Virus record (IMG/VR): IMGVR_UViG_3300027896_001999
Location: 2,470-66,469 of that record
DNA length: 64,000 bases
DNA from: a virus
Strand: one strand, 5' to 3'
Position numbers and translations under genes: made by a program
The notes under the pieces: generated by a model
What the model was told of the DNA's origin: nothing
Seen by the model: the letters and a program-made list of their open reading frames with translations, nothing else
Database searches by the model: none
Part shown: piece after piece, positions 3,980-55,700 of the stretch
Numbering within the stretch: position 1 is the first letter of the stretch
Layout: every line of letters begins with the position of its first letter

Positions 3980-4161
3980 TTGGAACCTCCCAAACTCTTT
4001 GGTATTGGCATAGGGTCTTTTTGAAACCATTTGGTTGTGAACGTACCAAATATGCACATGAAAGCAATAACTAAAGTGAATATCAAAGCTATCAACTTCC
4101 ATGTATGCTTTTCTGCCATTTCCCAGAATCCTTCCCAAAATGGTTTTAGATTTTTATGCAT
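3976..4161 (-). CDS. Small single-TM membrane protein (holin/lysis accessory candidate)
   Basis: Hydrophobic LIALIFTLVIAFMCIFGTF; overlaps both neighbours. Confidence 0.5.
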   Translation of the reverse strand: MHKNLKPFWEGFWEMAEKHTWKLIALIFTLVIAFMCIFGTFTTKWFQKDPMPIPKSLGGSK

Positions 4162-4585: not shown

Positions 4586-6331
4586 CTATGTCCAGTATGT
4601 TGCATGACTGCTAAATTGTGCTACTATTGCTACATCTGTTGTATCAATATTAGTGTTCAACGTATTACCAGTAGCATCGGGAAGCAAAGAAGAACCATAA
4701 GAACAGCTATGGAATCCTTCATGGACATTGCCCAAAATGGTGCCAGTAGCACATGCAGAAAGTACATTACAATTTTCAAACCCATATCCTAAGTCACCTG
4801 CACCTGCACCGCCAGTAACTCCATGAGCAAAACATCCTGACATATATGAACAAGTCTTAAACCCAGTAGCATGAGTGTTGGTCGATACAATATCACTTGC
4901 TCCGCACCCTGACATTGTATAACATAAACTGTGTCCAACAGATATCCCATTTGTAGACCTGCTATCATCCACCTGACAAGCAGACATTTGGTTACAAGAA
5001 TAAAAACCATAGACCGCACCATCTGTTGATGTTAAACCACTGGCGAAACATCCTGTTATTTGAGTGCAACCATAGAAGGCTCTAATCTCTGGAGTTGTCG
5101 TTGTTATGGTTTTTATCATACATCCTGTCACTTGGGAGCATTGATAAAATCCATACACAATATCCCCTGTTCCAGTTATGTTATAAACTAAGCAATTTGA
5201 TAAATTGCCACAATCTTTAAATCCGTAAATCTTATCTGTTCCATTAATCGCAAAAACTGAGCAATCTCTGTACTTACTTGTCGTGTTATGTAATGCCGTT
5301 CCACTTCCCTGAAATCCTACAAAATCAACGTTACTCAATCTATTGCTTGTCTTGCAGTTATCAAACGTAACATAATTTGCACCAAGTTTAAATGATTCAG
5401 TTATGCTCGCTACTGTCACACCTGTTCCTTTTATCCAGACATTTTTAAGATAGCAATGGTCTGTATTGACAGTCATATTCCCTTTCAATTCAGCAGCACC
5501 AGCACCACTCGCACTAAATTGGATAAATGTTCCAGATTCCATCGTGACCTCAGAACAAGCATTGGTATATAAGTCACCCCACGTATCACCACCGGATAAT
5601 AAACTGTATGGTTGATACCCTCCTGACAAATATCTGAAGTGAATTGATTTTATATGAGGCTTGAGATAATAAGCATTTGCACCAAACCGATAAAAAGCAT
5701 TATTGAAAGAGGTCTGGTCATACACAACCACTTGTGAATTTTTATTCCCAACTTTGTGAGGCATATATTGGGAAAATGTAAAAGTGCTTCCTGCTTCAGT
5801 AAATGTGCAAAGGCATAATTCATAAGCAGTTGGAGCAACAGTTGATGCCGTGAACACAAATGACGGTGATGAATCATATGCCCATGTTCCTGCTTTCTTT
5901 GCTCTGGACCTTGCAGTACCATCCAGATCCACATAAGCAACCTTCAAATAATTGACTGCACCACCAGCAGTCCATCCAGCAATCGTTAGATCTGTCTGAG
6001 CTGTCCATGCTACTCTGATTGCTTCAACATCCTCATCCTGAGTGGTTGGTGGTGTTGGCACATAACTCAAGACAGTCTGAAAAGATTTTTTGACATATCC
6101 CACTCCAGCGGTGATATTAAAGTTTGTACCAGCACCCTGAGATGCTTCACCGCCTTCAGTATGGAAAGGAATTTGTTTTAGCTGGTCTTTGAAGGAAAGA
6201 CCCACCCTGTCCATTAGATACAGCAGGTCTCTCATCAAGTCTTGTGAATAATACCGGTCACCCGCACCATCAGGCACTCCATTCGGTGCAACAGCATCAA
6301 AGCCCCAGTTGATTTTCTTTTTTATAGCCAT
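4586..6331 (-). CDS. Tail fibre/tailspike with Cys-rich beta-helix repeats
   Basis: Follows the baseplate genes; repeated GFxxCxxxxxC units in the C-terminal half. Confidence 0.8.
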   Translation of the reverse strand: MAIKKKINWGFDAVAPNGVPDGAGDRYYSQDLMRDLLYLMDRVGLSFKDQLKQIPFHTEGGEASQGAGTNFNITAGVGYVKKSFQTVLSYVPTPPTTQDEDVEAIRVAWTAQTDLTIAGWTAGGAVNYLKVAYVDLDGTARSRAKKAGTWAYDSSPSFVFTASTVAPTAYELCLCTFTEAGSTFTFSQYMPHKVGNKNSQVVVYDQTSFNNAFYRFGANAYYLKPHIKSIHFRYLSGGYQPYSLLSGGDTWGDLYTNACSEVTMESGTFIQFSASGAGAAELKGNMTVNTDHCYLKNVWIKGTGVTVASITESFKLGANYVTFDNCKTSNRLSNVDFVGFQGSGTALHNTTSKYRDCSVFAINGTDKIYGFKDCGNLSNCLVYNITGTGDIVYGFYQCSQVTGCMIKTITTTTPEIRAFYGCTQITGCFASGLTSTDGAVYGFYSCNQMSACQVDDSRSTNGISVGHSLCYTMSGCGASDIVSTNTHATGFKTCSYMSGCFAHGVTGGAGAGDLGYGFENCNVLSACATGTILGNVHEGFHSCSYGSSLLPDATGNTLNTNIDTTDVAIVAQFSSHATYWT

Positions 6332-35902: not shown

Positions 35903-35958
35903 GCTGGTCGGAATTCAGCCGGTTCAACTCCGGCTCCAGCGAATGCCTCTTTAGAGGC
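35903..35958 (+). ncRNA. tRNA-like minihelix element 1 (closing stem, T-arm, hairpin)
   Basis: GCTGG..AGCCGG TTCAACT CCGGCT CCAGC GAAT GCCTC TTTA GAGGC; covaries with element 2. Confidence 0.7.
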
Positions 35959-36447: not shown

Positions 36448-36505
36448 GCGGTATCGGTCGCTCGGCGGGTTCAACTCCCGCTACCGCGAATGCCTCGGAT
36501 GAGGC
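36448..36505 (+). ncRNA. tRNA-like minihelix element 2
   Basis: GCGGT..GGCGGG TTCAACT CCCGCT ACCGC GAAT GCCTC GGAT GAGGC. Confidence 0.7.
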
Positions 36506-37421: not shown

Positions 37422-37776
37422 TTATGTAATTTTGTACTCAATGTACTCAAAAACGGGCAAGCCTTTACTATACAAATTTTTATAAAAACTATTTCTAAAA
37501 GCTCATAAAATAAAGGGCTCCGTCAATTACAAAAATTTTAAAAAAACCCTGTTGAGTACAAAATTACATAATTATACAGATTTTGGAGTCTAAAAAAATG
37601 AACCCCCAAAAATTAAGATTCCAAAAAGTGTATAATTATGTAATTTTGTACTCAAGAAAAAATTATAAAAAAGTAATTTTTAAAAGTGTAATGTTTTATG
37701 AGCTTTTGGAAAAAGTGACTATACAAATTTGTACGTTAGACTGAGTACAAAGTTCACCCCTTATAGCCGTACTCAA
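37422..37776. repeat. AT-rich nested inverted-repeat region (origin-like)
   Basis: Perfect 27-bp IR 37552-37578/37629-37655; third 20-bp copy 37422-37441; 14-bp IR 37497-37510/37694-37707; further GTACTCA boxes. Confidence 0.8.
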
Positions 37777-37890: not shown

Positions 37891-37928
37891 TTACTTAATT
37901 ATTATTCTCACACAAGACGAACGGAGAT

Positions 37929-37984
37929 GGTTATTGGTTATTGGTTATTGGTTATTGGTTATTGGTTATTGGTCATTGGTTATT
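37929..37984 (+). repeat. Heptamer tandem repeat (GGTTATT)x8, seventh unit GGTCATT
   Basis: Counted directly. Confidence 0.95.
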
Positions 37985-39590: not shown

Positions 39591-40507
39591 AAGAAAGGAG
39601 AACGAAGAATGAGTATTAAAATTAAGAACAGATTTAAAGGCACAGTAATTCTATCGGGAGAATATGAAAGTTTAAAGGATTGCTTAGAAAAAAATTCCGG
39701 AGCCGATTTATCCGGAGCCGATTTACCCGGAGCCAATTTATACAGAGCCAATTTATCCGAAGCCGATTTATCCGGAGCCGATTTATCCGGAGCCAATTTA
39801 CACAGAGCCAATTTACACAGAGCCGATTTATCCGGAGCCTATTTAACCGAAGCCTATTTAACCGGAGCCTATTTAACCGGAGCCAATTTATCCGGAGTCT
39901 ATTTAACCGGGGCCGATTTAACCGGAGCCCATTTATCCGGAGTCTGTTTAACCGGAGCCGATTTATCCGGAGCCCATTTAACCGGAGCCAATTTATCCGG
40001 AGCCAATTTAACCGGAACCAATTTATCCGGAGCCTATTTAACCGGAGCCAATTTAACCGGAGCCAAAGGAATAATCCTTCCCGTAATTTCAATATCCGGT
40101 ACTCGAAATAATTTTTATTATTACAATGGGATCGTAAGAATCGGATGCGAAAGCCATACAGTTGATGAATGGATGGAAAAATACGTAAAAATCGGCGCGC
40201 AGGCAAATTACACGGAATCGGAAATCTCTGAATATTATCAGTATATTAAATTTTGCGCGGGAATTAAAGTTTAAGTATTCCTAAGAAATAAAAGAAAGGA
40301 GAACGAAGAATGAACGAAAAGAAACAAGAAGCTATAAAGCACTATAAAGAGATGATAGAGTGGGCCAAGTGGATTCTGTTGTGATGGTTACTGGTCCAGG
40401 ATGAATGGTGCGAAATCTTGGGGTCAGTGGGTGCCCTATGCAGTTCTTGTCTTACGGCATATAGAAGAACATGGTTAAATAATAAAAGAAAGGAGAACGA
40501 AGAATGA
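39577..40507 (+). repeat. Start-associated direct repeat, three copies (39577-39612, 40278-40313, 40481-40507)
   Basis: TTCCTAAGAAATAAAAGAAAGGAGAACGAAGAATGA twice, last 27 bp a third time. Confidence 0.92.
39609..40274 (+). CDS. Pentapeptide repeat protein
   Basis: More than 20 tandem A[DNYH]L[ST]G-type units; C-terminal IGCE.H...W domain. Confidence 0.92.
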   Translation: MSIKIKNRFKGTVILSGEYESLKDCLEKNSGADLSGADLPGANLYRANLSEADLSGADLSGANLHRANLHRADLSGAYLTEAYLTGAYLTGANLSGVYLTGADLTGAHLSGVCLTGADLSGAHLTGANLSGANLTGTNLSGAYLTGANLTGAKGIILPVISISGTRNNFYYYNGIVRIGCESHTVDEWMEKYVKIGAQANYTESEISEYYQYIKFCAGIKV

Positions 40508-41213: not shown

Positions 41214-41317
41214 AATTTAAGTTTGAACCACTTGCATGGTTGTTCACATCTCTATTGGTATTGGTCATAGTATGGAATATCTTTTTAATATTCCTTCTAT
41301 GTGGAGGTGTGAAGTGA
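41210..41317 (+). CDS. Small membrane peptide
   Basis: MKFKFEPLAWLFTSLLVLVIVWNIFLIFLLCGGVK; coupled on both sides. Confidence 0.5.
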   Translation: MKFKFEPLAWLFTSLLVLVIVWNIFLIFLLCGGVK

Positions 41318-42231
41318 ACAATGGGTACACGATGAAAATACGAGGCAAGTTCCCTCTTGCGGAACAAGCGAAGGAAAAGGGGAATCTTAGAGATGGGTTC
41401 TTCTCCGTCCCATTTGACTGGAGCAAAGACTATATATGCCAAGAGAAGCAAGATGGATGGAACGCGGTGGTCATAAAAGAGAACGAGGAAACACGATGGG
41501 ATGCGGAATGGTCGATGTATTCTGCTCTCCAAGCTATGTTGCCTACATTGAACAAGTATTTGCCAGACAACTCCATCCTTGTGGGCGAAGCAGGGTACGG
41601 AACGAATTCAGAGACAGAACTCGCATTGAAGAATGGTTATCATAGATTTGTAATATTTGATGTCATTCAATGGGAAGGGAAGAATGTTTGCTCATGGACG
41701 ACCGAGGAACGGCTTAAGATCATTCAGGAACATCAAGATAAGTATTCTCGGTATCCCAAAATACAAGTGGTACCAACTATCTATCTCACTGCGGGGAACA
41801 ATCAAGAAGCTTGCTGGTCGTTCTTTAAAAGTATTGTAGACCGGGGAGGAGAGGGTTGCGTTCTAAAAGAAATGGGTGCCCCATATATCATCGGTGGCGA
41901 AACGAAACAGATGTACAAGATAAAGAAATTTTTAACTAAAGATTTCGTGTTGCTGGGATTTGAAGGGACTGACTCACTCACGTATCTAGAACAGGGAATG
42001 ACTGTGAGTGCGATGTATTGCGGACTCTATGTGAATGGGGTATTGACGAACGTCACAAAGACCAGTGGATTTAATTTTAAATGGCGAAAGGCGTTCTCCG
42101 ATCATCCGGAGCTATATATTGGTAGAGTCGTAGAGCTGGGTGGGAATGAGATATTTAAGACAGGGGCGATGCGTCACTCATCGTTTTTAAGATTCAGAGA
42201 TGACCGGAAACCTGAGGAGTGTACGCTATGA
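41314..42231 (+). CDS. lig: ATP-dependent DNA ligase
   Basis: EKQDG motif I, GE, FDVI, EGCVLK, KIK, OB-fold ending F.RFRDDR; start approximate. Confidence 0.9.
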   Translation: MNNGYTMKIRGKFPLAEQAKEKGNLRDGFFSVPFDWSKDYICQEKQDGWNAVVIKENEETRWDAEWSMYSALQAMLPTLNKYLPDNSILVGEAGYGTNSETELALKNGYHRFVIFDVIQWEGKNVCSWTTEERLKIIQEHQDKYSRYPKIQVVPTIYLTAGNNQEACWSFFKSIVDRGGEGCVLKEMGAPYIIGGETKQMYKIKKFLTKDFVLLGFEGTDSLTYLEQGMTVSAMYCGLYVNGVLTNVTKTSGFNFKWRKAFSDHPELYIGRVVELGGNEIFKTGAMRHSSFLRFRDDRKPEECTL

Positions 42232-42383
42232 CAGTTGAAGCAAGAGTCGATGGTAAAGAATATATTTATATAGAAGAAGTAGATGTATGGCAATGCTGTT
42301 ACTGTGGTGTCCACGCTGATAAGATAGAGAACGTAAAGCATTATGATGGATGTAAAGAAGAACATTATGATTATAATGAATAG
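42228..42383 (+). CDS. 51-aa Cys/His protein
   Basis: Hand translation ...WQCCYCG...H..C; ATGA coupling. Confidence 0.5.
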   Translation: MTVEARVDGKEYIYIEEVDVWQCCYCGVHADKIENVKHYDGCKEEHYDYNE

Positions 42384-42538
42384 GTCAGGGCATGGTGGAA
42401 TAAGGCAACTCGTTTCCGGAAATAGGTTGTTAGACACGACCTGCAGTTCGCTACTGCTTTGCTACCAAGTGCAAATTGTGGAACTTGGTGTGAAGGTAGA
42501 ATTCCTACGGGAACTCAAGTCCTTCTGCCCTGACCTAT
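42380..42538 (+). ncRNA. tRNA-Leu-like structured RNA with hairpin insertions
   Basis: 13-bp terminal stem ATAGGTCAGGGCA/TGCCCTGACCTAT; TGGTGGAAT...TAGACACG D-arm; long variable arm; GAAGGT...TCAAGTCCTTC T-arm. Confidence 0.7.
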
Positions 42539-42583
42539 CCATTATATGGATGGTAAAAGAATAATACAAAAGGAGAAAGTCTT

Positions 42584-42946
42584 ATGGGAAAGAATTACAA
42601 AATGATGGTAGAAGGAAGAGAAGACAAAGACAATGTCTTATTGAAGACATTTGAAAACCTTGAACTGGAAGAAGCGAAGATCCAGGGAGAGAGTTTGATA
42701 ATGGACTGGGAGGAAGAATACGAAAACTTTATAGATGAACATGAAGATAACGAAACCATAAGCCTCGAGATGTTCTGCTCTAAGGTATTGCCTGAACTGA
42801 AAAGCGACGATGAGAGTGTGCTACTGCTCAGTGAAGATGGGGAAGAACAATTTATATACGAAGGGAATTGGGAACTCTATTCTGATGACATAGAAGTAGT
42901 TGATGACGATATAGAGGACGAAGACGAAGAAGAGGTGACTGAGTAA
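42584..42946 (+). CDS. Highly acidic small protein
   Basis: About one third Asp/Glu; AAGGAG RBS. Confidence 0.75.
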   Translation: MGKNYKMMVEGREDKDNVLLKTFENLELEEAKIQGESLIMDWEEEYENFIDEHEDNETISLEMFCSKVLPELKSDDESVLLLSEDGEEQFIYEGNWELYSDDIEVVDDDIEDEDEEEVTE

Positions 42947-48182: not shown

Positions 48183-48359
48183 ATGAGCGATAAAAAAGTG
48201 TACTTGGGGGATTCAGTGTACGTAGAATACGATGGGTATAATTTTGTACTGACCACAGATAATGGTATGGGTGCATCAAACACCATTGTACTGGAACCGA
48301 CTGTGTACGTTGCACTAACAAGATTCGTAAACAATTTAAAGAATAAGGAAGGTGGATGA
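48183..48359 (+). CDS. 58-aa phage protein
   Basis: Hand translation MSDKKVYLGDSVYVEYDGYNFVLTT...IVLEP.V..AL; GAGG RBS. Confidence 0.65.
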   Translation: MSDKKVYLGDSVYVEYDGYNFVLTTDNGMGASNTIVLEPTVYVALTRFVNNLKNKEGG

Positions 48360-48360
48360 T

Positions 48361-49254
48361 ATGCCAATAACAAAAGATTTACTTGACAAGAAAAACTACA
48401 TGATCGGAATTCCGTCGAGAGAACGGAGCTTCATGATAAGGGAAAGAAAAGGTTTGTGGTTACACACAGACCCCATTGAGAAATACCCTGTGAGAGCCAT
48501 TGTGAGAGAAAGTGAAAAGGACAATTATGAAATGGTTCCGGCCATACTTTGTCCAGACTCTTGCACTATTGCTAACAAGAGACAAAGATTAATGGAATAC
48601 GCCATTGCTTGCAATTACGAATTTCTTTTTATCATAGATGACGACGTGGCGCTCTATTATAGGGATGAAAATTTATCCTCTAAATACACATCCAAGCGAG
48701 AGACATTTCAGGCTGAGGATTGCTTTAATCGTATTCTTTATGAAGCGATTATGCTCTGTGGGGAGAAGGCACCGATAATTGGACTTCCGTTGAAGTTGGG
48801 CAGTTTCGGACTGAAATGGAAATTCCCTAAAAATATTCCCGTAATAAGATTCGTCTGTTATCATGTTCCAACTCTGGTGAAAGAAAACATAAAGATGGAT
48901 GGCATGGGGACGATGTTCATGAGTGACAGATTCACTCACCTTTCACTTTTGAACAAAGGGTATTATTCACTAAGCAACTGCGGGTATGCAGTTGGGGATC
49001 AGGGGACTGGATATAAAGGAGGGTGCAGTGTAACCAGAACAGTCGAACTCCAGTCTGCCTCGGCCATTGCTTTAAGAGATGCTTTTCCGAATCATGTTGA
49101 ATTGAAAATTAAAAACAATGGGCTCTGGGACGCGGAAAGATTGGACTGCCGTATCTCATGGCGGAAGTTCTTAAAAGAAGGAGAAAGCAATTTCCTACCA
49201 GCAGAGGAAGGGAAAAGATTAATCGAAAGCGAGGGGTATAGATGCAGAATATAG
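48361..49254 (+). CDS. GT-A fold glycosyltransferase (TET/JBP-associated-like) 1
   Basis: IPSRER, I..KRQ, IDDD and GGCS..R motifs. Confidence 0.78.
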   Translation: MPITKDLLDKKNYMIGIPSRERSFMIRERKGLWLHTDPIEKYPVRAIVRESEKDNYEMVPAILCPDSCTIANKRQRLMEYAIACNYEFLFIIDDDVALYYRDENLSSKYTSKRETFQAEDCFNRILYEAIMLCGEKAPIIGLPLKLGSFGLKWKFPKNIPVIRFVCYHVPTLVKENIKMDGMGTMFMSDRFTHLSLLNKGYYSLSNCGYAVGDQGTGYKGGCSVTRTVELQSASAIALRDAFPNHVELKIKNNGLWDAERLDCRISWRKFLKEGESNFLPAEEGKRLIESEGYRCRI

Positions 49255-50105
49255 ATTTCAACCAAAAATTCTTAGACAAGTTCATTGAAGTCGCGATAGA
49301 GAGACATAAGATATATAAGCTCCGAGAAAGTGGAGCTCCCCGTCCTTGGACGAACAACGAAATTCTACGGGACTTCTTCTTTTGCAATCTCTTTCGGCAA
49401 TACGACAGATGTTCAAAATGGATTATAGAAAACATAGTTCCTTATGAAAGGTGGGATCTACTGGTTCTGTATCGTTTCATTTCAACGTACACCACATTTG
49501 AACATATAAAAGCATCATGCCAATTAGACAACTTACCACTTATCCATGATCTATTAAGAGAAATGAAAAATGCAGATTTGAAGATCTTCAGCGGATGTTT
49601 TATCCGGAATCCCAGAATCCCGGGTGGTTGGACTGAAACTTACAATGTTCCATTTGTTTTGATAGACGAAATAAAGAAAGATGGCACCATTGAATTGGTA
49701 ATAGCTCTTAATTCTTTAAAGAAGATGGTAGACTACTTTTCAAGATTCCCTGGTACAAAATTCTTCATGGGGTACGAATACGCATGTGATCTTGAATACA
49801 CCAAGTTCTTTAACCCAACCGATAAATTTACGTGGGCGAACATGGGGCCAGGAGCGATGAGAGGCATGAGTCTACTGCTCCATGGGAGTGCTTTCCAAAA
49901 GATGAAGCAAGACTTTTGGTTAGAGAAAGCACAAGAGCTACTGGGAATCATGACCAAGGAAGTCGGTTCCATATTCCCTGAGGAAACCATCACTATGCGG
50001 GAAGTAGAACATCAATTATGCGAATTCCAAAAGTATGTAAAATATGGTTCTATGTCCGAGGGAAGTGAAAGAGTGAAGCATAGAAAATTCAACGGGAGTA
50101 TATAG
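49242..50105 (+). CDS. 5-hmdU DNA kinase-like helical protein (aGPT-Pplase1 family)
   Basis: ERH.IY..RE.G.P.PWT..ILR..FFCN..R..DR.S.WI, FM.YE..CDL, GPGA.RG, E..LCEF.KY. Confidence 0.85.
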   Translation: MQNIDFNQKFLDKFIEVAIERHKIYKLRESGAPRPWTNNEILRDFFFCNLFRQYDRCSKWIIENIVPYERWDLLVLYRFISTYTTFEHIKASCQLDNLPLIHDLLREMKNADLKIFSGCFIRNPRIPGGWTETYNVPFVLIDEIKKDGTIELVIALNSLKKMVDYFSRFPGTKFFMGYEYACDLEYTKFFNPTDKFTWANMGPGAMRGMSLLLHGSAFQKMKQDFWLEKAQELLGIMTKEVGSIFPEETITMREVEHQLCEFQKYVKYGSMSEGSERVKHRKFNGSI

Positions 50106-50107
50106 AT

Positions 50108-50983
50108 ATGAAACACGCAACAATAATTCCGTCTAAAGACCGGTCTCATCTATTACTTAGATATGCGGATCTGCCGGCACGGAGATTCAATCATCCAATA
50201 TTCAATACAAAGTTATGGGTGAGCGAAAAGGAGTACGACACGTATAAGAAAGTGGTAGACGAACTGCGATTGGAACACGTGGAACTGATCGCCGACGATC
50301 ATGCTAATATAGCGGAATGCCGTCAGAATATCTTAATGTATTGCCACGAACATGGGTATGATTATTTATTCTCGCCGGATGACGATGTGCGGTTCCATGC
50401 AAGAGAAAGTAATTGGAAAGTAGTTCCATTAGAGCTGGAGGAAAACGTAAATCTCTTCAATCACATGTCGTCTATCTGTAGTACGGAAGTTCCTCTGGTT
50501 TCACTTCGATACAGATTCATGGTCCAGAATTGCAATACAGCTTATGAGAAGAATTATAAAATCATTATTTTGTATTTCGTTCACGTTCCAACGTTGGTGA
50601 ACAATGGCGTTTCTTTTAAGCATGAAGGGTTTCAATTCTACGAAGACAAATATATGCAACTACAACTCTATTCAAAGGGATTCCGTTCCTGCACTTCATC
50701 TATGTATGCGACATCTCAACGTCAGCCAGATAACACAGAAGGAGGTTGCTTCGCTTATAGAAACATAGAAGAGGCTAATCGTCACTCGCGGATTATGCAC
50801 GAAGAGTGGCCCGAGTACTCGAAGCTGGTGATTAAGAATAGTTGGAAGGAAGGTCCAAGGTTAGAGAACATATGGTACTTCAAAAAATTTTTAAAACCAG
50901 ATGAATTACGGTATTTCCCAAAAGAACAGATGGAACGATTTATGGGAAGAGAAGGTGCTTATAGGCTGGAGGTCCCTGTATGA
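50108..50983 (+). CDS. GT-A fold glycosyltransferase (TET/JBP-associated-like) 2
   Basis: IPSKDR, I...RQ.I, DDD, ED..MQLQL...G, GGC..YR; paralogue of 48361. Confidence 0.8.
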   Translation: MKHATIIPSKDRSHLLLRYADLPARRFNHPIFNTKLWVSEKEYDTYKKVVDELRLEHVELIADDHANIAECRQNILMYCHEHGYDYLFSPDDDVRFHARESNWKVVPLELEENVNLFNHMSSICSTEVPLVSLRYRFMVQNCNTAYEKNYKIIILYFVHVPTLVNNGVSFKHEGFQFYEDKYMQLQLYSKGFRSCTSSMYATSQRQPDNTEGGCFAYRNIEEANRHSRIMHEEWPEYSKLVIKNSWKEGPRLENIWYFKKFLKPDELRYFPKEQMERFMGREGAYRLEVPV

Positions 50984-51437
50984 TCTATGCGGAAGTGGTA
51001 GTTGGTAGAAGAAAAATAAGAGCCATAGAATACGAAGTCAATGAGAATGGGTGCTGGATCTGTACGAGTCACTGCTTAGCTTATGGGTATCCTGTAATAG
51101 AATTAAACGGAACTAAGAAGTTAAGCCGAGTTGTCTTGGAACGGTCTTTGGGAAGAAAAATAAAAGAAGGGCTTTGGGCTCTTCATAAGTGCAACAATCG
51201 TGCATGTATCAATCCAGAGCATCTGTATGAAGGCACTCCGGAGGAAAATACAAAGGATTCTATGGAAGCGGGAACCCTTGTTTCTAAGCTGACAGAAGCT
51301 CGGGTCTTAGAAATAAGAAAGTCTACTTTGTCTGGTTCTAAGTTGGGGAAGATTTATGGGTGACCAGAAAATGCATCAATGAGATTAAAAGAAGAGACAC
51401 ATGGAAGCACGTTAAGGAGAAACAAGATGGAGTATAG
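50980..51437 (+). pseudogene. HNH endonuclease with frameshifted C-terminal HTH
   Basis: GCW, LHKCNN..C.NP.HL..G...N; 1-bp deletion at ~51360; the shifted frame continues VTRKCINEIKRRDTWKH like paralogue 60189. Confidence 0.75.
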
Positions 51438-52503
51438 TAAAGAACGAGTAGAACAACTACGAAAAAACAAACTGACTGTCTTCGAAGACATTCATTATTT
51501 AAAAGTCGAACCCAGTCATATCTGTAATCGTAAATGCAATTTCTGTGGAATCTCCCACAGAGAGTCTGGCATGATGACTATGGAAACTTTTAATAATCTT
51601 ATAAATGGAGCAGGGAATTCCCTGAAAAGAATAGACTTTAGTCTTCAGGGAGAACCGACACTCAATCCCTTGCTACCAGACATGATTGAATTGGTTAGGA
51701 ACGATTATCCTGATTGCCAAATAATGGTTATATCTAACATGGACAAGATCAAAAGAGAAGGGATGGAATGGTTGTTTGATTTATATGACAGAGGTCTCAA
51801 TATTTTACAAGCAGATTTATATGACAACGACACAGAGCGATGGTTCTTAGATGATGTAAGAAAACATAAAGAGCACTTTATAAAACGAGACATAGCACTG
51901 CACAATGTATATGAAACTAACGATAACCCTTTCCACTATGCTGGACCAAAGAAGAAGGATATTTATTATATAGTAGAACGATCTGACCATGATGATATGG
52001 TTGGTAAAAAGAATTCGGCACGCAATATCCATACTTGGGGAGGCAATCTTCCTTTAGAGAAATGGGAACCCTATGGATTATCTTTATCTGACTTCCCTAT
52101 GAAAAAGAAATGTACGGAGCCTTTGAAATATGCCACTATCCGTTTCAATGGCGAGGTTGCTCCTTGTTGCTTTGACGGCGCATGCACAACGACTATTGGA
52201 AATGTTAATGACGAACCCATAAATGACATCTGGAAAGGCAAGAATTTCCAAATGATAAGATTAGTAGCTTCCCTCGGAATGCGAGAAATGATGCTCCCAT
52301 GTATTCTATGTAATAGATTAAGTTTTAGAATTGGTTTGAATCCATACTGGGGGAAAGAGTACTCTTTACAAGAAGTGATAGAAACTCTTAGAACTATCCA
52401 AGTTTTATACAAAGAAGAATCTTTATATGGAAATCTAATGGAATTGAGATCTACTCGTAATCTTCCTCTACATATACAGGAGTTGATAAGCAATGCTCGA
52501 TAA
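51427..52503 (+). CDS. Radical SAM enzyme with SPASM/twitch domain 1
   Basis: CNRKCNFC, GEP.L.P, C.EP....G.V..CC.D, C..C; start chosen by alignment to the paralogue. Confidence 0.9.
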   Translation: MEYSKERVEQLRKNKLTVFEDIHYLKVEPSHICNRKCNFCGISHRESGMMTMETFNNLINGAGNSLKRIDFSLQGEPTLNPLLPDMIELVRNDYPDCQIMVISNMDKIKREGMEWLFDLYDRGLNILQADLYDNDTERWFLDDVRKHKEHFIKRDIALHNVYETNDNPFHYAGPKKKDIYYIVERSDHDDMVGKKNSARNIHTWGGNLPLEKWEPYGLSLSDFPMKKKCTEPLKYATIRFNGEVAPCCFDGACTTTIGNVNDEPINDIWKGKNFQMIRLVASLGMREMMLPCILCNRLSFRIGLNPYWGKEYSLQEVIETLRTIQVLYKEESLYGNLMELRSTRNLPLHIQELISNAR

Positions 52504-53545
52504 AGAAAGAGTAGCCCATCTGAAGTCAAAGAATCTTACCGTATTCGAGGAAGTCTACAGCCTTCGCTTAGAGGTCTACAGCGGATGCAATCTAAACTGC
52601 TGGTCATGTGGTAGAGGAAGGACGAACCACGGTACGATGGATTTCTTTACGTTTGAAAAGATATTATCAGACCTCACTGATCGTTGCACTCGTATGGAAT
52701 TTGGGGTTCAGGGGGAACCATCCCTTCATCCGGGGTTGGTAGATTTTGTAGCAATGGCAAGAAAAAGATTACCCAAGGCACAACTACTTATAATTTCAAA
52801 TACAGAGGCTTTCCGTAATGATGGGCACTATACAGTAAAAAGTCTATTTGATGCAGGGTTGAACTTCCTTCACGCAGACATTTATAACGAAAGACAAATG
52901 GAGTGGATCTCAAAGTTGAACATAGAGGGAGTGTCTATTCAAGACTACTATAAACAGAATGTAAATGCCTTTTCTTACAAGGGAAATGCCCAAAAGACCA
53001 TGATTATCACAAACGAAATTGAAGGGTTCGGAGCTACAAGAAGCGCCACAAGAGTTCCCCATAATTTTGGTGGGAACCTTCCATATATGCATTGGCAAAA
53101 ATTGATAGGGATGCAGATAAAGGATTTTCCATTAGAAAAGACTTGCGTAGAACCTCTCAAGTATATGACAGTCAACTGGAACGGAGACGTAAACTTGTGT
53201 TGCCGGGAAGGGGCGAAAGCTGTCGTAGTTGGAAACACCAACAACGAAAACCTGCAAGACATATGGCAGGGTGAAGCAATGCAGAAGATACGACTATTGC
53301 TATGTAATAAGAAACGAAAGGATATCATACCTTGCGTACTGTGTAATGCAAGATCTTTCCGTTCAGGGCTCTATCCATATTGGGGACCGTCGTACGGATA
53401 TGAGGATATAATAAAAGACATTGATAAATATTTTTCTTTAAACAAAAAAGAACACATGCATGAAAATCTATTGAGTCTGTTGAGCATAAAAGAATTACCC
53501 ATACATATAACAAATTATCTAAGGAGGAAGGACGAATGCAGTTAA
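52493..53545 (+). CDS. Radical SAM enzyme with SPASM/twitch domain 2
   Basis: CNLNCWSC, GEPSLHP, C.EP....G.V..CC.E, C..C. Confidence 0.9.
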   Translation: MLDKERVAHLKSKNLTVFEEVYSLRLEVYSGCNLNCWSCGRGRTNHGTMDFFTFEKILSDLTDRCTRMEFGVQGEPSLHPGLVDFVAMARKRLPKAQLLIISNTEAFRNDGHYTVKSLFDAGLNFLHADIYNERQMEWISKLNIEGVSIQDYYKQNVNAFSYKGNAQKTMIITNEIEGFGATRSATRVPHNFGGNLPYMHWQKLIGMQIKDFPLEKTCVEPLKYMTVNWNGDVNLCCREGAKAVVVGNTNNENLQDIWQGEAMQKIRLLLCNKKRKDIIPCVLCNARSFRSGLYPYWGPSYGYEDIIKDIDKYFSLNKKEHMHENLLSLLSIKELPIHITNYLRRKDECS

Positions 53546-54126
53546 AAGATTATTTAGAAAAATATGATACCTTGAAGAACATCAAGCGTTTCAACATGGA
53601 AACGGTGATAGAGCCTCAAAATCTTTGCGACCATGGACATGGTGTCGGAACTTTGTATTATCTATTGTGCAAAGAAATGGGGGTGCTTATTTCCGTAGAC
53701 ACTTTGTTTATGGTCATGAATCACGACTTCGCGGAAGCATACACAAGTGACCTGAACAGAAGGGTGAAGGATAAGACAAAAAAGACTTCAGAAGCATGGA
53801 AAGTAATAGAAAATTCCAATCTTCCTTTGTCGTTGATTTGTTGGACAGATGAATCCATAAAGAGTTCATTGGGTGGGTTTGATGAATCTATCCGGTACAT
53901 GGTATTTCAAATCGCAGATGAATGGGAAGCCATGCAATATTGCTTAAGGGAAGTCAACAAAGGTAATTCTTATATGAAAAGACCTCTTGGGGTCTACATG
54001 GAAATGGTTAATGAAAAGATAAGATCCCTTAGATCTTGCGGTAAGAATTATGAAATATGCTGTGACTATCTTCTTTTACTTATAGAAAGAATAGACGTAG
54101 AATACGACTTGGGGGCAAATATATGA
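53536..54126 (+). CDS. HD-domain nucleotide hydrolase (YfbR-like)
   Basis: L..IKRF, N..DH, HDFAE..T.D, AD..E. Confidence 0.85.
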   Translation: MQLKDYLEKYDTLKNIKRFNMETVIEPQNLCDHGHGVGTLYYLLCKEMGVLISVDTLFMVMNHDFAEAYTSDLNRRVKDKTKKTSEAWKVIENSNLPLSLICWTDESIKSSLGGFDESIRYMVFQIADEWEAMQYCLREVNKGNSYMKRPLGVYMEMVNEKIRSLRSCGKNYEICCDYLLLLIERIDVEYDLGANI

Positions 54127-54959
54127 ATCACATTATTGATGAATATGAAAGCATGAATAAAGCATACTTATCTCTTCTCTTCCAATTACTTAATAGTCCC
54201 ACATATATTTCCACCACTCGGAAAGGGGAAACCATATCCGAGATGCTTAATGCGGGGTTCATTTTGAAAGATCCTACAAAATGTTTTGCCACTTGCAGGA
54301 ATATGTCTTTAAAGTATCTTGATGGGGAATTGGAGTTCTATTTAAGTGGAAGCCCTTATCTTAAGGACATAACCAAGCACTCTAAGTTCTGGGAGAAAGT
54401 CACAGATGATGATAGAACAGTGAATTCCAATTATGGGAAACTACTATTCTATGACAGAAACCATCACAACTACACTCAGTTTGAATATGCTAAACGAATG
54501 TTGTTGGAAAATCCAGACAGTAAGAAAGCGGTCATGGTCATTTACAGTAAAGAAAACGCACACGACAGCCAGGACAATCCATGTACGATGTTCCTGCAAT
54601 TTTTCATAAGGGAAAAGAAACTCCACCTCATAGTAAAGATGCGCTCATCAGACATATGGTATGGTCTTCCGTACGATGTACCATTTTTTGTTTTCGTTCA
54701 GTACAAGATGTTGCATGCTCTTGAAAGATATTATCCATCACTACGAATGGGTCTGTACAACCATCAGTCTGGTAGCCTTCATCTATACAGTAGGAATGCA
54801 TCGGTGGCTCACAGTACTCTGAAAAGAGATAGAGAGCTTTGGGAAAATCTAAGTCTGACTGAGGAGTTCTTAGATTTTTGTGAATCGATTCAAACAGAGC
54901 TCTTTATCAAGTATATTAAAACCAAAGTAGGGGAGGGGAAAGGAGATGTCGAATATTGA
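54123..54959 (+). CDS. Thymidylate synthase homologue, probable dCMP (hydroxy)methylase
   Basis: PCT..LQF, MRSSDIWYGLPYDV (Asp at the E. coli ThyA Asn177 position), H..GSLHLY. Confidence 0.82.
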   Translation: MNHIIDEYESMNKAYLSLLFQLLNSPTYISTTRKGETISEMLNAGFILKDPTKCFATCRNMSLKYLDGELEFYLSGSPYLKDITKHSKFWEKVTDDDRTVNSNYGKLLFYDRNHHNYTQFEYAKRMLLENPDSKKAVMVIYSKENAHDSQDNPCTMFLQFFIREKKLHLIVKMRSSDIWYGLPYDVPFFVFVQYKMLHALERYYPSLRMGLYNHQSGSLHLYSRNASVAHSTLKRDRELWENLSLTEEFLDFCESIQTELFIKYIKTKVGEGKGDVEY

Positions 54960-55224
54960 AAGAATCATAGACCATAGGAATGGGAAATTGTCTTATGTAA
55001 CCAAATCTTTGGTATTCCCCCCAGACGGAAGTGTGAAAAAGATTTGTTCAAAATGTAAAAAATCTTTACCAATAGAAAGTGGATTCCATGTGACTTCACG
55101 TATAAAAGGAGACACGAAATACTTGTATAATCATTGCAAGTGTAAAGAGTGTAGAAGAGCAGAAAGAAGAAGCTACTATAAAGATGGACCAAAGATAATA
55201 TCAAAAGGAGAAAAGAAGAAATGA
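54946..55224 (+). CDS. Zn-ribbon protein
   Basis: K.CSKC...LP...FH...CKEC. Confidence 0.6.
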   Translation: MSNIERIIDHRNGKLSYVTKSLVFPPDGSVKKICSKCKKSLPIESGFHVTSRIKGDTKYLYNHCKCKECRRAERRSYYKDGPKIISKGEKKK

Positions 55225-55700
55225 CTATACTCAAACCAAAAGATGTGGAAACTCTAATTCAAATGGCTCATGCTCAAACTCGTTTCTCTATGTGCCTTAA
55301 AAAGAAGGTTGGAGCAGCTCTATACAGCACCACCGATAGAGCCATCTACGGATTAGGTCATGGGGGACCAAAGATTCCATGTAAAGAATGTGTAAGAAAA
55401 AAGTATGAATGGACTCAAGATGGGTGTTGGTCCATTCATGCAGAGATACGTGCAATATTTGATTATTTCAAAAAAGAAGGGTACAACAATCCATTCATTT
55501 CTTGTGTCATGTTCACCACCCATGGTCCTTGTGATGGGTGTTTGAAATATATGAACTATTTTGGGATAGGTTCTGTTGTCTACGATATCCCTTATCACAA
55601 TGACTATTCAAAGTGGGTTGGAAAGATAAGAGTATTCTCTAAAGAAGAATATCTTAAGAACTGTTACGACATAGACGAACCATGGGAGCCAAAAGAATGA
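55221..55700 (+). CDS. dCMP deaminase
   Basis: C.K.KVGA, HAE..A and PC..C zinc motifs. Confidence 0.88.
   Translation: MTILKPKDVETLIQMAHAQTRFSMCLKKKVGAALYSTTDRAIYGLGHGGPKIPCKECVRKKYEWTQDGCWSIHAEIRAIFDYFKKEGYNNPFISCVMFTTHGPCDGCLKYMNYFGIGSVVYDIPYHNDYSKWVGKIRVFSKEEYLKNCYDIDEPWEPKE

Follow-up and report, generated by a model that had tools for sequence, protein, structure and literature searches.

Between two genes of an uncultured freshwater phage, the plus strand can form a very stable fold of about 160 bases, which raises the question of what this element is and whether it still has anything to do with translation. An earlier note on this DNA had described it as a tRNA-Leu-like RNA with extra hairpins in the D and T loops, not decoding but kept as a tRNA mimic. 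The phage DNA that was analysed is a stretch of 64,000 nucleotides, hereafter the window. Every sequence string quoted in the earlier note was found at its place, and the coordinates of the element and its flanking genes are given in Table 1.

Gene neighbourhood of the element

The genes around the element, all on the plus strand, comprise the ligase, small ORFs and the primase, with the primase and helicase genes on the other side of the element from the ligase. About 200 nt of non-coding DNA are retained at the element within this tightly packed operon. Two ORFs overlap it (73 aa on the plus and 87 aa on the minus strand), and their best PHROG match reached only E = 0.018. A promoter and terminator scan revealed no promoter- or terminator-like site flanking the element, and we therefore infer that it is made as part of the early/replication-gene transcript, in which it lies between the ligase operon and the next ORF. 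No tRNA gene was found in the 64-kb window with ARAGORN.

The iterons and AT-rich tract of the window are located at 37.4-38.0 kb, with none at the element. Two paralogous folds made of tRNA pieces were observed elsewhere in the same phage, between early genes (35903-35958 and 36448-36505). Their T arm is canonical, three of their pairs show compensatory changes, and the 29-nt motif of the two T-arm elements gave 0 matches in the viral collection.

Table 1. Positions of the element's parts and of the adjoining genes within the window
Feature	Position	Strand	Details
Upstream gene, ATP-dependent ligase	41236..42231	+	PF01068 (9.5e-10), PF09414 (2.2e-6), phrog_114; same strand and operon as the element
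Small ORF	42228..42383	+	51 aa from ATG; stop codon TAG (42381-83) within the 5' strand of the closing helix; no family match
Closing helix, 5' strand	42375..42392	+	Outer 4 bp 42375-78; mismatch 42379; 13 bp 42380-92; pair probabilities 0.66-1.0
Acceptor CAGGGCA	42386-42392	+	Paired with TGCCCTG 42526-42532, 7/7 bp
D-arm region overall	42393..42442	+	
D arm, 5' part	42393-42401	+	TG 42393-94 (positions 8-9); GTG 42395-97; GAAT 42398-42401
D-loop insert	42402-42430	+	29 nt
D arm, 3' part	42431-42442	+	TAGA 42431-34; CAC 42435-37; G 42438; then extra ACCT up to 42442
Predicted D-region hairpins	42396-400/42414-18; 42424-30/42436-42	+	p 0.35-0.59; p 0.82-0.90
Hairpin at anticodon-arm position	42443..42457	+	GCAGT-TCGCT-ACTGC; GCAGT/ACTGC 42443-47/42453-57; 5 bp, 5-nt loop; p 0.85-0.90
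Hairpin at variable-arm position	42464..42489	+	ACCAAGT/ACTTGGT 42464-70/42483-89; 7 bp, 12-nt loop; p 0.83-1.0
T-arm equivalent	42492..42525	+	GAAGG 42492-96/CCTTC 42521-25 around T 42497, 17-nt insert and TCAAGT 42515-20; p 0.79-0.89
T-loop insert	42498-42514	+	17 nt; contains TTCC-TACG-GGAA
Closing helix, 3' strand	42526..42543	+	TGCCCTG; discriminator A 42533; CC 42534-35; then TAT, C mismatch, CATT
Downstream ORF	42584..42946	+	120 aa, no family; AAGGAG before ATG; ATG 45 nt past the element

Predicted fold and its stability

The two ends of the element are joined by a long helix. As had been stated before, the acceptor stem extends to 13 bp: 13 perfect pairs connect 42380-92 with 42526-38, and beyond a 1x1 mismatch four more pairs follow (42375-78/42540-43). 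The observation that no CCA follows the stem is correct insofar as the sequence reads A-CC-T and a full CCA is absent, but a discriminator A and CC are encoded and are paired with the 5' leader GGT. As had been pointed out, both inserts are at the elbow, each in one of the two tRNA loops that build it. In the T-loop insert, the predicted structure GA-A-TTCC-TACG-GGAA-C-TC (42499-42516) has a C(UACG)G tetraloop (42506-09) at its tip. The 29-nt insert hairpin as drawn earlier (GCAAC/GTTGT and TTTCC/GGAAA) received a pair probability of only ~0.1. The ensemble preferred TGGAA/TTCCG and AGGTTGT/ACGACCT in the D region, the latter with p = 0.9, and the pair probability of a tRNA D stem was ~0, so that a rearranged D region is thermodynamically favoured over the D stem of a tRNA. 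The D region also contains a near-duplicate of the D-loop start (GGAATAAGG and GGAAATAGG).

The minimum free energy of the element is -65.7 kcal/mol (z = -5.5), and none of 200 shuffled sequences was equally stable. A local-fold scan of both strands of the window, limited to spans of <=180 nt, returned the element as the most stable structure (-69.5 versus -59.9 for the next on the plus strand). All modelled pairs are canonical, and the C(UACG)G tetraloop is formed on the plus strand only. The minus-strand and DNA folds are as stable as the plus-strand RNA (z = -7.1, -5.2 and -6.1).

Relation to leucine tRNA genes

The D, T and 3'-end motifs of real tRNA-Leu genes occur in the element in the correct order and register: TGGTGGAAT..TAGACAC, GG-T..TCAAGTCC, and A-CC after the stem. 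Once the inserts are disregarded, TGGTGGAAT with TAGACAC and the following G, as well as GG-T..TCAAGTCC, are identical to E. coli leuZ/leuU, which bears out the earlier tRNA-Leu-like assignment. By arithmetic from composition-based figures, chance would place the three tRNA-Leu motifs in this arrangement and at these distances ~2e-6 times per window strand. A search of 596 Gb of prokaryote genomes with the same composite pattern gave only 25 matches, and 23 of these lacked paired stems. Judged from these motifs, the element clearly derives from a class II leucine tRNA gene. The parts of the tRNA-Leu frame that are kept, as read from the sequence, are the 7-bp acceptor with A-CC, the leuZ/leuU-type D-arm sequences, and the T stem with TCAAGT. 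It had been proposed that removing the two inserts restores the D and T consensus. This holds at the level of the motifs, but cutting the inserts as delimited loses any GG for positions 18-19.

Tests as a decoding tRNA

Each arm of the element departs from that of a decoding tRNA. At the acceptor, an unpaired discriminator and a free (C)CA end are expected; the 7/7 stem, the A and the CC are present but are paired with the leader in the 13-17-bp helix. A D arm has a 3-bp stem and a loop of 8-11 nt with GG, and here GTG/CAC and GAAT/TAGA match leuZ/leuU, yet the loop measures 37 nt. The anticodon arm, for which a 7-nt loop with U33, a Leu anticodon and a purine at position 37 is expected, is represented by a hairpin with the 5-nt loop UCGCU and extra nucleotides on both sides; the alternative 7-nt loop UUCGCUA offers CGC and U37, and again no Leu anticodon. 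In place of a T arm of 5 bp with a 7-nt TTCRANY loop, the stem is complete (5/5) and the loop is 24 nt long with an internal hairpin. All three sites that proteins read on a tRNA are altered in the modelled fold: the 3' end is locked in a helix, the elbow loops carry hairpins, and a short hairpin that lacks an anticodon stands for the anticodon arm.

Searches with tRNA finders and models gave a consistent picture. ARAGORN and Rfam gave no match on the element, and no known Rfam family was obtained at the gathering score or, with the 170 nt alone, at E <= 10. A tRNA-Leu covariance model of our own scored it at 9.8 bits (E = 2.7, rank 6 of 9). When the inserts were deleted in silico, 0 of 1729 variants were called as a tRNA by ARAGORN at the default threshold; a relaxed threshold yielded weak Ala(cgc) calls in 143 and Lys(ctt) calls in 73, and none of the 10 calls examined with coordinates spanned the element's real ends. 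A simple in-house scan for strict bulge-helix-bulge motifs returned six, no enrichment over 200 shuffles (mean 4.1), and none of the six coincided at its boundaries with either the D insert (42402-30) or the T insert (42498-514). These results agree with the earlier view of a non-decoding RNA. A working tRNA was rejected on account of the failing tRNA finders and models, the 5-nt loop at the anticodon position and the lack of a splice motif at the inserts. A tmRNA was also rejected, as ARAGORN detected none and Rfam gave no tmRNA match on the element.

Search for homologues

Near and distant searches of GenBank phage DNA gave no match, and no close relatives were found among viral contigs via the ligase, the 120-aa ORF or the primase. 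Homologues of the ligase were collected as 16 proteins and 104 profile-based loci. The closest were 75-76% identical, on contigs of 1.1-2.3 kb, and 57% identical on a 14-kb contig; one contig ended inside the ligase gene. BLASTN and nhmmer searches with the element against 107 loci returned self matches only. No equivalent fold was seen in the gaps 3' of the ligase (five stretches of four loci), and ARAGORN found no tRNA directly 3' of the ligase in the closer relatives. A single-sequence model of the element (R1) recovered only the element itself from 50 sources (the window and 49 loci) and five virus records. BLAST against 1.34 Mb of loci with RNAs of the tRNA-Leu-frame type described below gave chance words only. 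The exact 21-mer of the T-loop/acceptor end had 0 matches in the genome and viral collections, and thus no source tRNA or attB-like site was found. Among sequencing runs, none of RNA was listed for this DNA; one DNA run, probably the source of the contig, contained the source contig only and no variants of the element. As no homologue was found for covariation analysis, the case for maintenance is limited to the helices: that all of them are flawless in the model is the only argument that the element is maintained by selection.

Comparison with known tRNA-like RNAs

Phages are known to encode stable RNAs that resemble tRNAs. RNA1 and RNA2 of phage T5 (NC_005859, 30501-30644 and 32959-33083) are annotated as 'tRNA-like stable RNA with unknown functions', and rnaC of phage T4 (species 1 RNA; NC_000866, 70908-71046) as 'small, stable RNA'. 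None of the three belongs to an Rfam family at the gathering score. Like the element, the T5 RNAs are phage-encoded; they are 125-144 nt long, with a larger folded domain at the site of the anticodon arm. RNA1 carries the D arm CCG-GAAUUGGUAGA-CGG, of tRNA-Leu type, and its T arm, GAAGG-UUCAACU-CCUUC, has the stem letters of the element. In contrast to the element, both T5 RNAs are located in a tRNA cluster; their D and T loops are intact, their acceptor end is open, and they have been seen as stable RNAs. In the element, hairpins interrupt both loops, the ends are closed by a helix of 13-17 bp, and no tRNA genes surround it. T4 rnaC (139 nt) shares with the element the long hairpins that replace most of the tRNA and has a canonical T arm, CCGGG-UUCGAAU-CCCGG, adjacent to its 3' end. 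It differs in its location at the end of the T4 tRNA cluster, its intact T loop, and the absence of the tRNA-Leu D-arm motif pair. No sequence homology of the element to the T5 RNAs was detected, a MAFFT alignment of five sequences including T5 RNA1/RNA2 and T4 rnaC (one row with wrong coordinates) being uninformative. Among the features of phage tRNA-like stable RNAs, the element displays the top-half motifs (acceptor, Leu-type D arm, T arm) and the non-decoding middle; no homology to the members was detected in the loci and records searched, and the element does not lie in a tRNA cluster.

A larger group of RNAs was encountered in viral contigs. Eight of 10 viral pattern matches were tRNA-Leu frames with a D-loop hairpin of 18-39 nt between GAAU and GG and no canonical anticodon arm. 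The frame they share is AGUCAGG-UG-GCG-GAAU..ACAGG-UUCGAAU-CCUGU-CCUGACU-A. When 80 of 120 loci, the first ones, were examined with a 16-mer seed from this frame, 90 copies were counted, one of the 90 with a D-loop hairpin insert. Enough flanking sequence was available for 86 copies, and 65 of these had a T arm and matching end (73-160 nt, median 107); ARAGORN missed 48 of the 65. A T-loop hairpin was present in 0 of the 128 viral frame copies examined. These RNAs resemble the element in combining a conserved tRNA-Leu top half with a non-decoding middle of variable size. They differ in the conserved frame sequence, which is absent from the element, in lying mostly in tRNA clusters, and in an acceptor end that is extended by only 1-2 pairs.

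The bacterial Y RNA YrlA consists of a tRNA-like module and a Ro-binding stem, with a long helix formed from the two RNA ends and D- and T-like features. Its long stem replaces the anticodon stem and not the acceptor end, unlike in the element. Identity with YrlA or another Y RNA was rejected, as the element had no Rfam match at E <= 10 and no TROVE/Ro gene was found in the phage.

A further analogy is offered by the t-elements of plant mitochondria, tRNA-like processing signals beside mRNAs (PMC1920247). They too are folds derived from a tRNA that separate or adjoin coding regions in a polycistronic setting, which served us as a working model for the element's role; they differ in being cleaved by RNase P/Z at an open acceptor end (PMC1920247), where the element's end is closed. 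In the literature searched, including passages of PMC7609411, PMC10690425 and PMC4810235, no account was found of hairpins inserted into the D or T loop of a phage tRNA-Leu-like RNA, although the supplements of PMC10690425 may list candidates. The literature searched also yielded no printed description of the viral tRNA-Leu-frame RNA family.

Alternative explanations

A dying tRNA-Leu pseudogene, which gained insertions, lost its anticodon arm and has no present function, would agree with a singleton for which no homologue was found, with a window free of other tRNA genes and with the failure of tRNA finders; the near-duplicated D-loop start is what a local duplication would leave behind. Decay should, however, break helices, and the 13+5+7+5 stem pairs and the insert hairpins are all intact. 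Far from being eroded, the end helix has become longer, the fold is the most stable in 64 kb, and the non-coding DNA has been kept in a tightly packed operon. We judge a pseudogene to be unlikely. The direction of the tRNA-Leu motifs, which is that of transcription, together with the UACG tetraloop and G-U pairs that favour the plus-strand RNA, makes a DNA-level signal in the replication module, be it an origin-type multi-hairpin for single-strand initiation or a cruciform, very improbable, even though both strands fold equally well as RNA and DNA and the element lies between the ligase and the primase/helicase genes. The iterons and AT-rich tract are moreover situated elsewhere in the window.

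The element could also act as a decoy shaped like a tRNA, or as a sponge, and tie up a host factor with affinity for tRNA-Leu: a defence nuclease, a tRNA-modifying toxin or LeuRS, for example. A decoy was the main idea of the earlier note. The tRNA-Leu-specific D, T and discriminator motifs speak for it, as does the wide retention of non-decoding tRNA-Leu frames by phages. Bacterial LeuRS does not read the anticodon, which also counts in its favour. A decoy for anticodon nucleases is nevertheless unlikely because the anticodon position, whether as UCGCU or as UUCGCUA with U37, lacks a Leu anticodon, and a synthetase decoy would be hampered by a 3' end locked in a 13-17-bp helix and an interrupted elbow. 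The predicted fold also drops the D stem. No tRNA-repair or other tRNA-related gene was identified among the 30 window proteins scanned against Pfam, and the adjoining ligase looks, by its sequence, like a DNA ligase (PF01068, KxDG). Taken as a whole, we find the decoy distinctly unlikely. Least credible is an interrupted yet functional tRNA whose inserts are removed after transcription, close to the non-canonical introns that had also been suggested. Restoration of the D/T consensus at the motif level and the weak relaxed-threshold ARAGORN calls are what can be said for it, against the absence of default calls and of calls spanning the real ends, the absence of bulge-helix-bulge motifs at the insert boundaries, the extra nucleotides flanking the anticodon hairpin and the U at position 37. 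Splicing of short introns from tRNAs is not known in bacteria.

Proposed nature and role of the element

We consider it moderately probable that the element is a structured plus-strand RNA which descended from a class II tRNA-Leu gene, no longer decodes, is akin to the phage tRNA-like stable RNAs and constitutes a processed intercistronic fold. By analogy, its kin in kind are best read as T5 RNA1/RNA2, T4 rnaC and the viral tRNA-Leu-frame RNAs, of which it would be an atypical and so far unique variant. What appears to be new in it are the inserts in both elbow loops, the closed 13-17-bp end helix and the location outside a tRNA cluster.

The element most likely acts at the RNA level, as a fold between cistrons. 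Host RNase III, acting on the long end helix, or RNase P/Z, acting on the stack of acceptor and T stem, may cut it out or stop at it. Such cutting or stalling would punctuate or stabilise the flanking mRNAs and could release a compact, nuclease-resistant RNA of 150-170 nt. Leader-trailer pairing makes a poor RNase P substrate, which counts against RNase P processing of the element. With changes in the elbow, the 3' end and the anticodon alike, tRNA-binding enzymes would find little to recognise, and both a mimic and a mechanism through RNase P/Z become less probable.

More tentatively, phages may widely use the tRNA-Leu top half as a portable frame for non-decoding domains, an uncatalogued class with T5 RNA1 as its first example. 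The element might then be an extreme form, with elbow and 3' end rebuilt and no tRNA handling, that is made within an early mRNA and not in a tRNA cluster, and that either provides an inert scaffold resistant to nucleases or traps a host factor binding the tRNA-Leu body.

The tRNA-Leu-frame RNAs in viral contigs, together with the element, indicate that RNAs of this sort occur commonly, are diverse and escape tRNA finders. The element is a sharp test case among them, a variant that lacks all three classical tRNA recognition sites while its helices are flawless. Should it prove to be made and stable, what is conserved in such RNAs would be the fold itself and not tRNA-like handling. The element also signals that RNA elements derived from tRNAs can be embedded in the mRNAs of a phage that has no tRNA genes.

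Position and stability of the element

The tRNA-Leu-like element lies in a 200-nt gap separating two plus-strand ORFs of an uncultured freshwater phage, whose IMG/VR record (66,469 bases, 64,000 of them in the window) is rated complete by CheckV. All strings quoted in an earlier note, made from the sequence alone, were found at their coordinates, and the extended 13-bp acceptor stem described there was recovered in full and continues past a mismatch. The stop codon of the upstream small ORF falls within this closing helix. A scan found no promoter- or terminator-like sites flanking the element, and it is therefore probably part of the operon transcript.

The plus-strand RNA had a minimum free energy of -65.7 kcal/mol (z = -5.5), and 0 of 200 shuffles were equally stable. 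In a local-fold scan of both strands with spans up to 180 nt, positions 42372-42547 gave the top fold of the whole window (-69.5, vs -59.9 for the next on the plus strand); a fixed-window scan passed over the element owing solely to window phase.

Features of the element and of the surrounding phage genome (window coordinates)
Feature	Position	Strand	Description
tRNA-Leu-like element	42380-42538	+	about 160 nt; outer pairs reach 42375-42543
Closing helix	42380-92 / 42526-38		13 perfect pairs, then 1x1 mismatch, then 4 further pairs
D insert	42402-42430	+	29 nt
T insert	42498-42514	+	17 nt, with TTCC-TACG-GGAA
Remodelled D region, hairpin 1			TGGAA/TTCCG; pair probability 0.35-0.59
Remodelled D region, hairpin 2			AGGTTGT/ACGACCT; pair probability 0.82-0.90
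Upstream small ORF		+	51-54 aa, directly after ATP-dependent ligase gene
Downstream ORF		+	120 aa, own AAGGAG and ATG
Paralogous T-arm element, copy 1	35903-35958	+	intercistronic, same early region as the tRNA-Leu-like element
Paralogous T-arm element, copy 2	36448-36505	+	intercistronic, same early region
AT-rich region	37422-37733 and 37928-37983		GC about 0.21, long inverted repeats
Inverted-repeat arms	37552-94 / 37613-55		43-nt arms; also 20-nt perfect arms
Pentapeptide-repeat protein	39609-40274	+	221 aa, early operon (PF00805, 2.8e-70)
Thymidine-hypermodification set	48352-55700	+	5-hmdU DNA kinase, thymidylate-synthase homologue, dCMP deaminase, HD phosphohydrolase, two TAGT-like glycosyltransferases, two radical-SAM/SPASM proteins

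Relationship to leucine tRNA genes

The element was aligned with tRNA-Leu genes, five of them from E. coli K-12, one from T4 and two others from phages. The proposed likeness to tRNA-Leu was borne out, with agreement outside the inserts in three motifs. The D arm of leuZ/leuU, TGGTGGAAT-YGG-TAGACAC, corresponds to TGGTGGAAT-[29 nt]-TAGACAC-G, the T arm GG-TTCAAGT-CC to GG-T-[17 nt]-TCAAGT-CC, and the 3' end ..A-CCA to A-CC-T following the 7-bp stem. Singly, these motifs were no more frequent in the window than expected by chance. Their joint occurrence in the element's order and spacing (the composite pattern) has a chance expectation of about 2e-6 per strand, by arithmetic from the single-motif frequencies. 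In 596 Gb of prokaryote genomes this pattern had just 25 matches, and in 23 of these the acceptor and T stems were unpaired. The only reasonable reading of the motifs is therefore that the element descends from a class II leucine tRNA.

The element is nevertheless non-decoding, as had been proposed. ARAGORN called no tRNA genes in the 64-kb window, and Rfam gave no match on the element at gathering score; relaxing the cut-off to E <= 10, on 1 kb or on the 170 nt alone, did not change this. An unfiltered covariance model of the eight real tRNA-Leu genes matched it partially (9.8 bits, E = 2.7, rank 6 of 9). Removal of the two inserts had been said to restore the tRNA consensus; this holds for the flanking D and T motifs, but none of 1729 in-silico double deletions around the inserts was called by ARAGORN at its default threshold. 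At a relaxed threshold 216 weak calls were obtained (143 Ala(cgc), 73 Lys(ctt)), and none of the 10 with coordinates examined spanned the real ends. The anticodon-position hairpin has a 5-nt loop with extra nucleotides on either side; it can alternatively be read as 4 bp with a 7-nt loop, UUCGCUA, giving CGC with a pyrimidine at position 37.

Pair probabilities were 0.8-1.0 for the closing helix, both hairpins in the middle and the T arm with its extension, and about 0 for the tRNA D stem. The 29-nt hairpin expected in the D insert fared poorly (only about 0.1), and a cloverleaf-type D arm was 7.6 kcal/mol costlier than pairing of the insert with both former D-stem strands. The T insert folds into a 7-position hairpin that takes in the TC of TCAAGT, so that a long rod, interrupted by a 2x4 internal loop, is predicted in place of a T loop.

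Homologues and related RNAs in viral contigs

No homologues were found in the collections and loci searched. The nearest relatives examined shared just 43-53% ligase identity and had nothing comparable in sequence or fold downstream of the ligase, and a covariance model built from the single element sequence had no match in three of them searched as whole records. The sole sequencing run with this DNA, probably its source, contained no variants. The exact 21-mer from the T-loop/acceptor end was absent from both large collections, one of genomes and one viral; this speaks against a host tRNA end copied as a phage attachment site.

With 10-40 nt required between GAAT and TAGAC, the composite pattern matched 10 viral contigs. 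Eight (L114, L116, L118-L123) were tRNA-Leu frames in which a hairpin of 18-39 nt sits in the D loop, between GAAU and GG; their T arm is intact, and their middle is enlarged and has no canonical anticodon arm. In L115 the D loop was normal and the middle enlarged, and L117 was rejected as a chance overlap. Since these eight cases compare with at most one among the 25 prokaryote matches, the D-loop hairpin insert in tRNA-Leu-like genes is a phage trait. Of the nine tRNA-like elements, several are located in tRNA clusters of phages; neither ARAGORN nor Rfam tRNA at its gathering score called any of the nine. Two of the tRNA-rich regions also hold another RNA, about 0.8-0.9 kb away from the aberrant genes: a GOLLD RNA in L119 (11667-12074, minus strand, 268 bits) and a phage tmRNA in L120 (2169-2485, minus strand, 84.7 bits).

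A 16-mer from the frame common to five of the nine elements matched at least 120 viral loci (L150-L269 being those listed). This very common frame, AGUCAGG-UG-GCG-GAAU(U)GGUAGACGC ... ACAGG-UUCGAAU-CCUGU-CCUGACU-A (e.g. L159, L190, L118, L122), has a highly variable, mostly non-decoding middle and occurs in up to five copies within 5 kb. The first 80 of these loci held 90 copies, 86 with enough flank, and a T arm with matching acceptor end was present in 65 of the 86 (73-160 nt, median 107). ARAGORN called 17 of the 65 and missed 48, and only some reached the Rfam tRNA score. Across the 120 loci listed, 98 of 128 copies had the standard end and none had a T-loop hairpin. One locus, L201 (minus strand, position 4099 of the reverse complement), carries an "empty" frame: CCTGTCCTGACTA follows the 5' half AGTCAGGTGGCGGAAT without a break, as would result from deletion of the entire middle and the T arm. 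Copies in L122 (5575-5663, plus strand; called tRNA-SeC(tca) by ARAGORN) and L159 (minus strand, at 4590) have UCA in a short anticodon-position loop, and may be opal-suppressor-like or non-decoding variants.

Genomic context

The two paralogous elements share one layout: a stem of 5 bp and a linker of 10-12 nt are followed by a canonical T arm whose loop reads TTCAACT, then by GA and another hairpin, GCCUC-NNNN-GAGGC. Three pair changes, all compensatory, separate the copies (GCUGG/CCAGC vs GCGGU/ACCGC; GCCGG/CCGGC vs GCGGG/CCCGC), and one matches the Rfam tmRNA T arm locally (E = 2e-4). The window has two such T-arm hairpins vs 0.23 in shuffles; their 29-nt motif had no match in viral contigs. 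Therefore, the phage maintains tRNA-piece folds between early genes.

The phage encodes PolA, an AEP primase, UvrD-type and SNF2 helicases and a gpA-type terminase, and its gene content suggests that its DNA is probably hypermodified. No tRNA-related enzymes were seen among 30 window proteins scanned against Pfam, and no Ro/TROVE gene was found. The pentapeptide-repeat protein could be a DNA-mimic or anti-defence candidate. The AT-rich repeat region at 37.4-38.0 kb is probably the operator or origin of the early operon; eight tandem TGGTTAT heptamers occur at the first HTH gene start.

Proposed function and alternatives

The element is a tRNA-Leu-derived, exceptionally stable, non-decoding fold between genes on the transcribed strand, and the phage has other tRNA-piece folds in the same operon. 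On balance, we lean towards a genuine RNA element, one of the tRNA-like stable RNAs of phages. That it is instead a decaying pseudogene, as its lack of homologues might suggest, is unlikely beside the perfect pairing of its closing helix. Proteins read tRNAs at three places, the elbow, the 3' end and the anticodon, and taken at face value the predicted fold has lost all three; a decoy for a tRNA-Leu-binding host factor, to which the tRNA-Leu motifs might point, is thus a still weaker candidate.

The minus-strand and DNA-parameter folds are as strong as the plus-strand RNA fold, so the strand cannot be told from stability alone. Three features favour the plus strand: its C(UACG)G tetraloop, its G-U pairs and the orientation of the tRNA motifs, which is that of the surrounding genes. 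We regard a DNA-level signal as improbable. A spliced functional tRNA, with the inserts as the non-canonical introns once suggested, is scarcely credible: a simple scan found no bulge-helix-bulge whose boundaries coincide with those of the inserts, and such motifs were not enriched (6 vs a mean of 4.1 in shuffles).

For the favoured stable-RNA reading, processing or stability is the leading mechanism. The element would act as RNA, and its end helix of 17 bp, which would stack on the T-arm rod, is a plausible RNase III target. If the RNA were cut there, or if exonucleases stalled on the fold, the mRNAs on either side would be punctuated or stabilised and a compact RNA would be set free.

Annotations of T4 and T5 already include RNAs of this kind, which has neither a catalogued family nor an assigned function: RNA1 and RNA2 of T5 bear the label 'tRNA-like stable RNA with unknown functions', and rnaC of T4 is labelled 'small, stable RNA'. 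None of the three matches an Rfam family at gathering score. In T5 RNA1 the D arm is of the tRNA-Leu type, and the T arm reads GAAGG-UUCAACU-CCUUC. The literature searched held no description of such hairpin inserts (for t-elements, see PMC1920247). New in the element, and without equal among the RNAs compared, are the hairpins in both elbow loops and the closed end helix, together with its place inside an operon of replication genes in a phage that has no tRNA genes.
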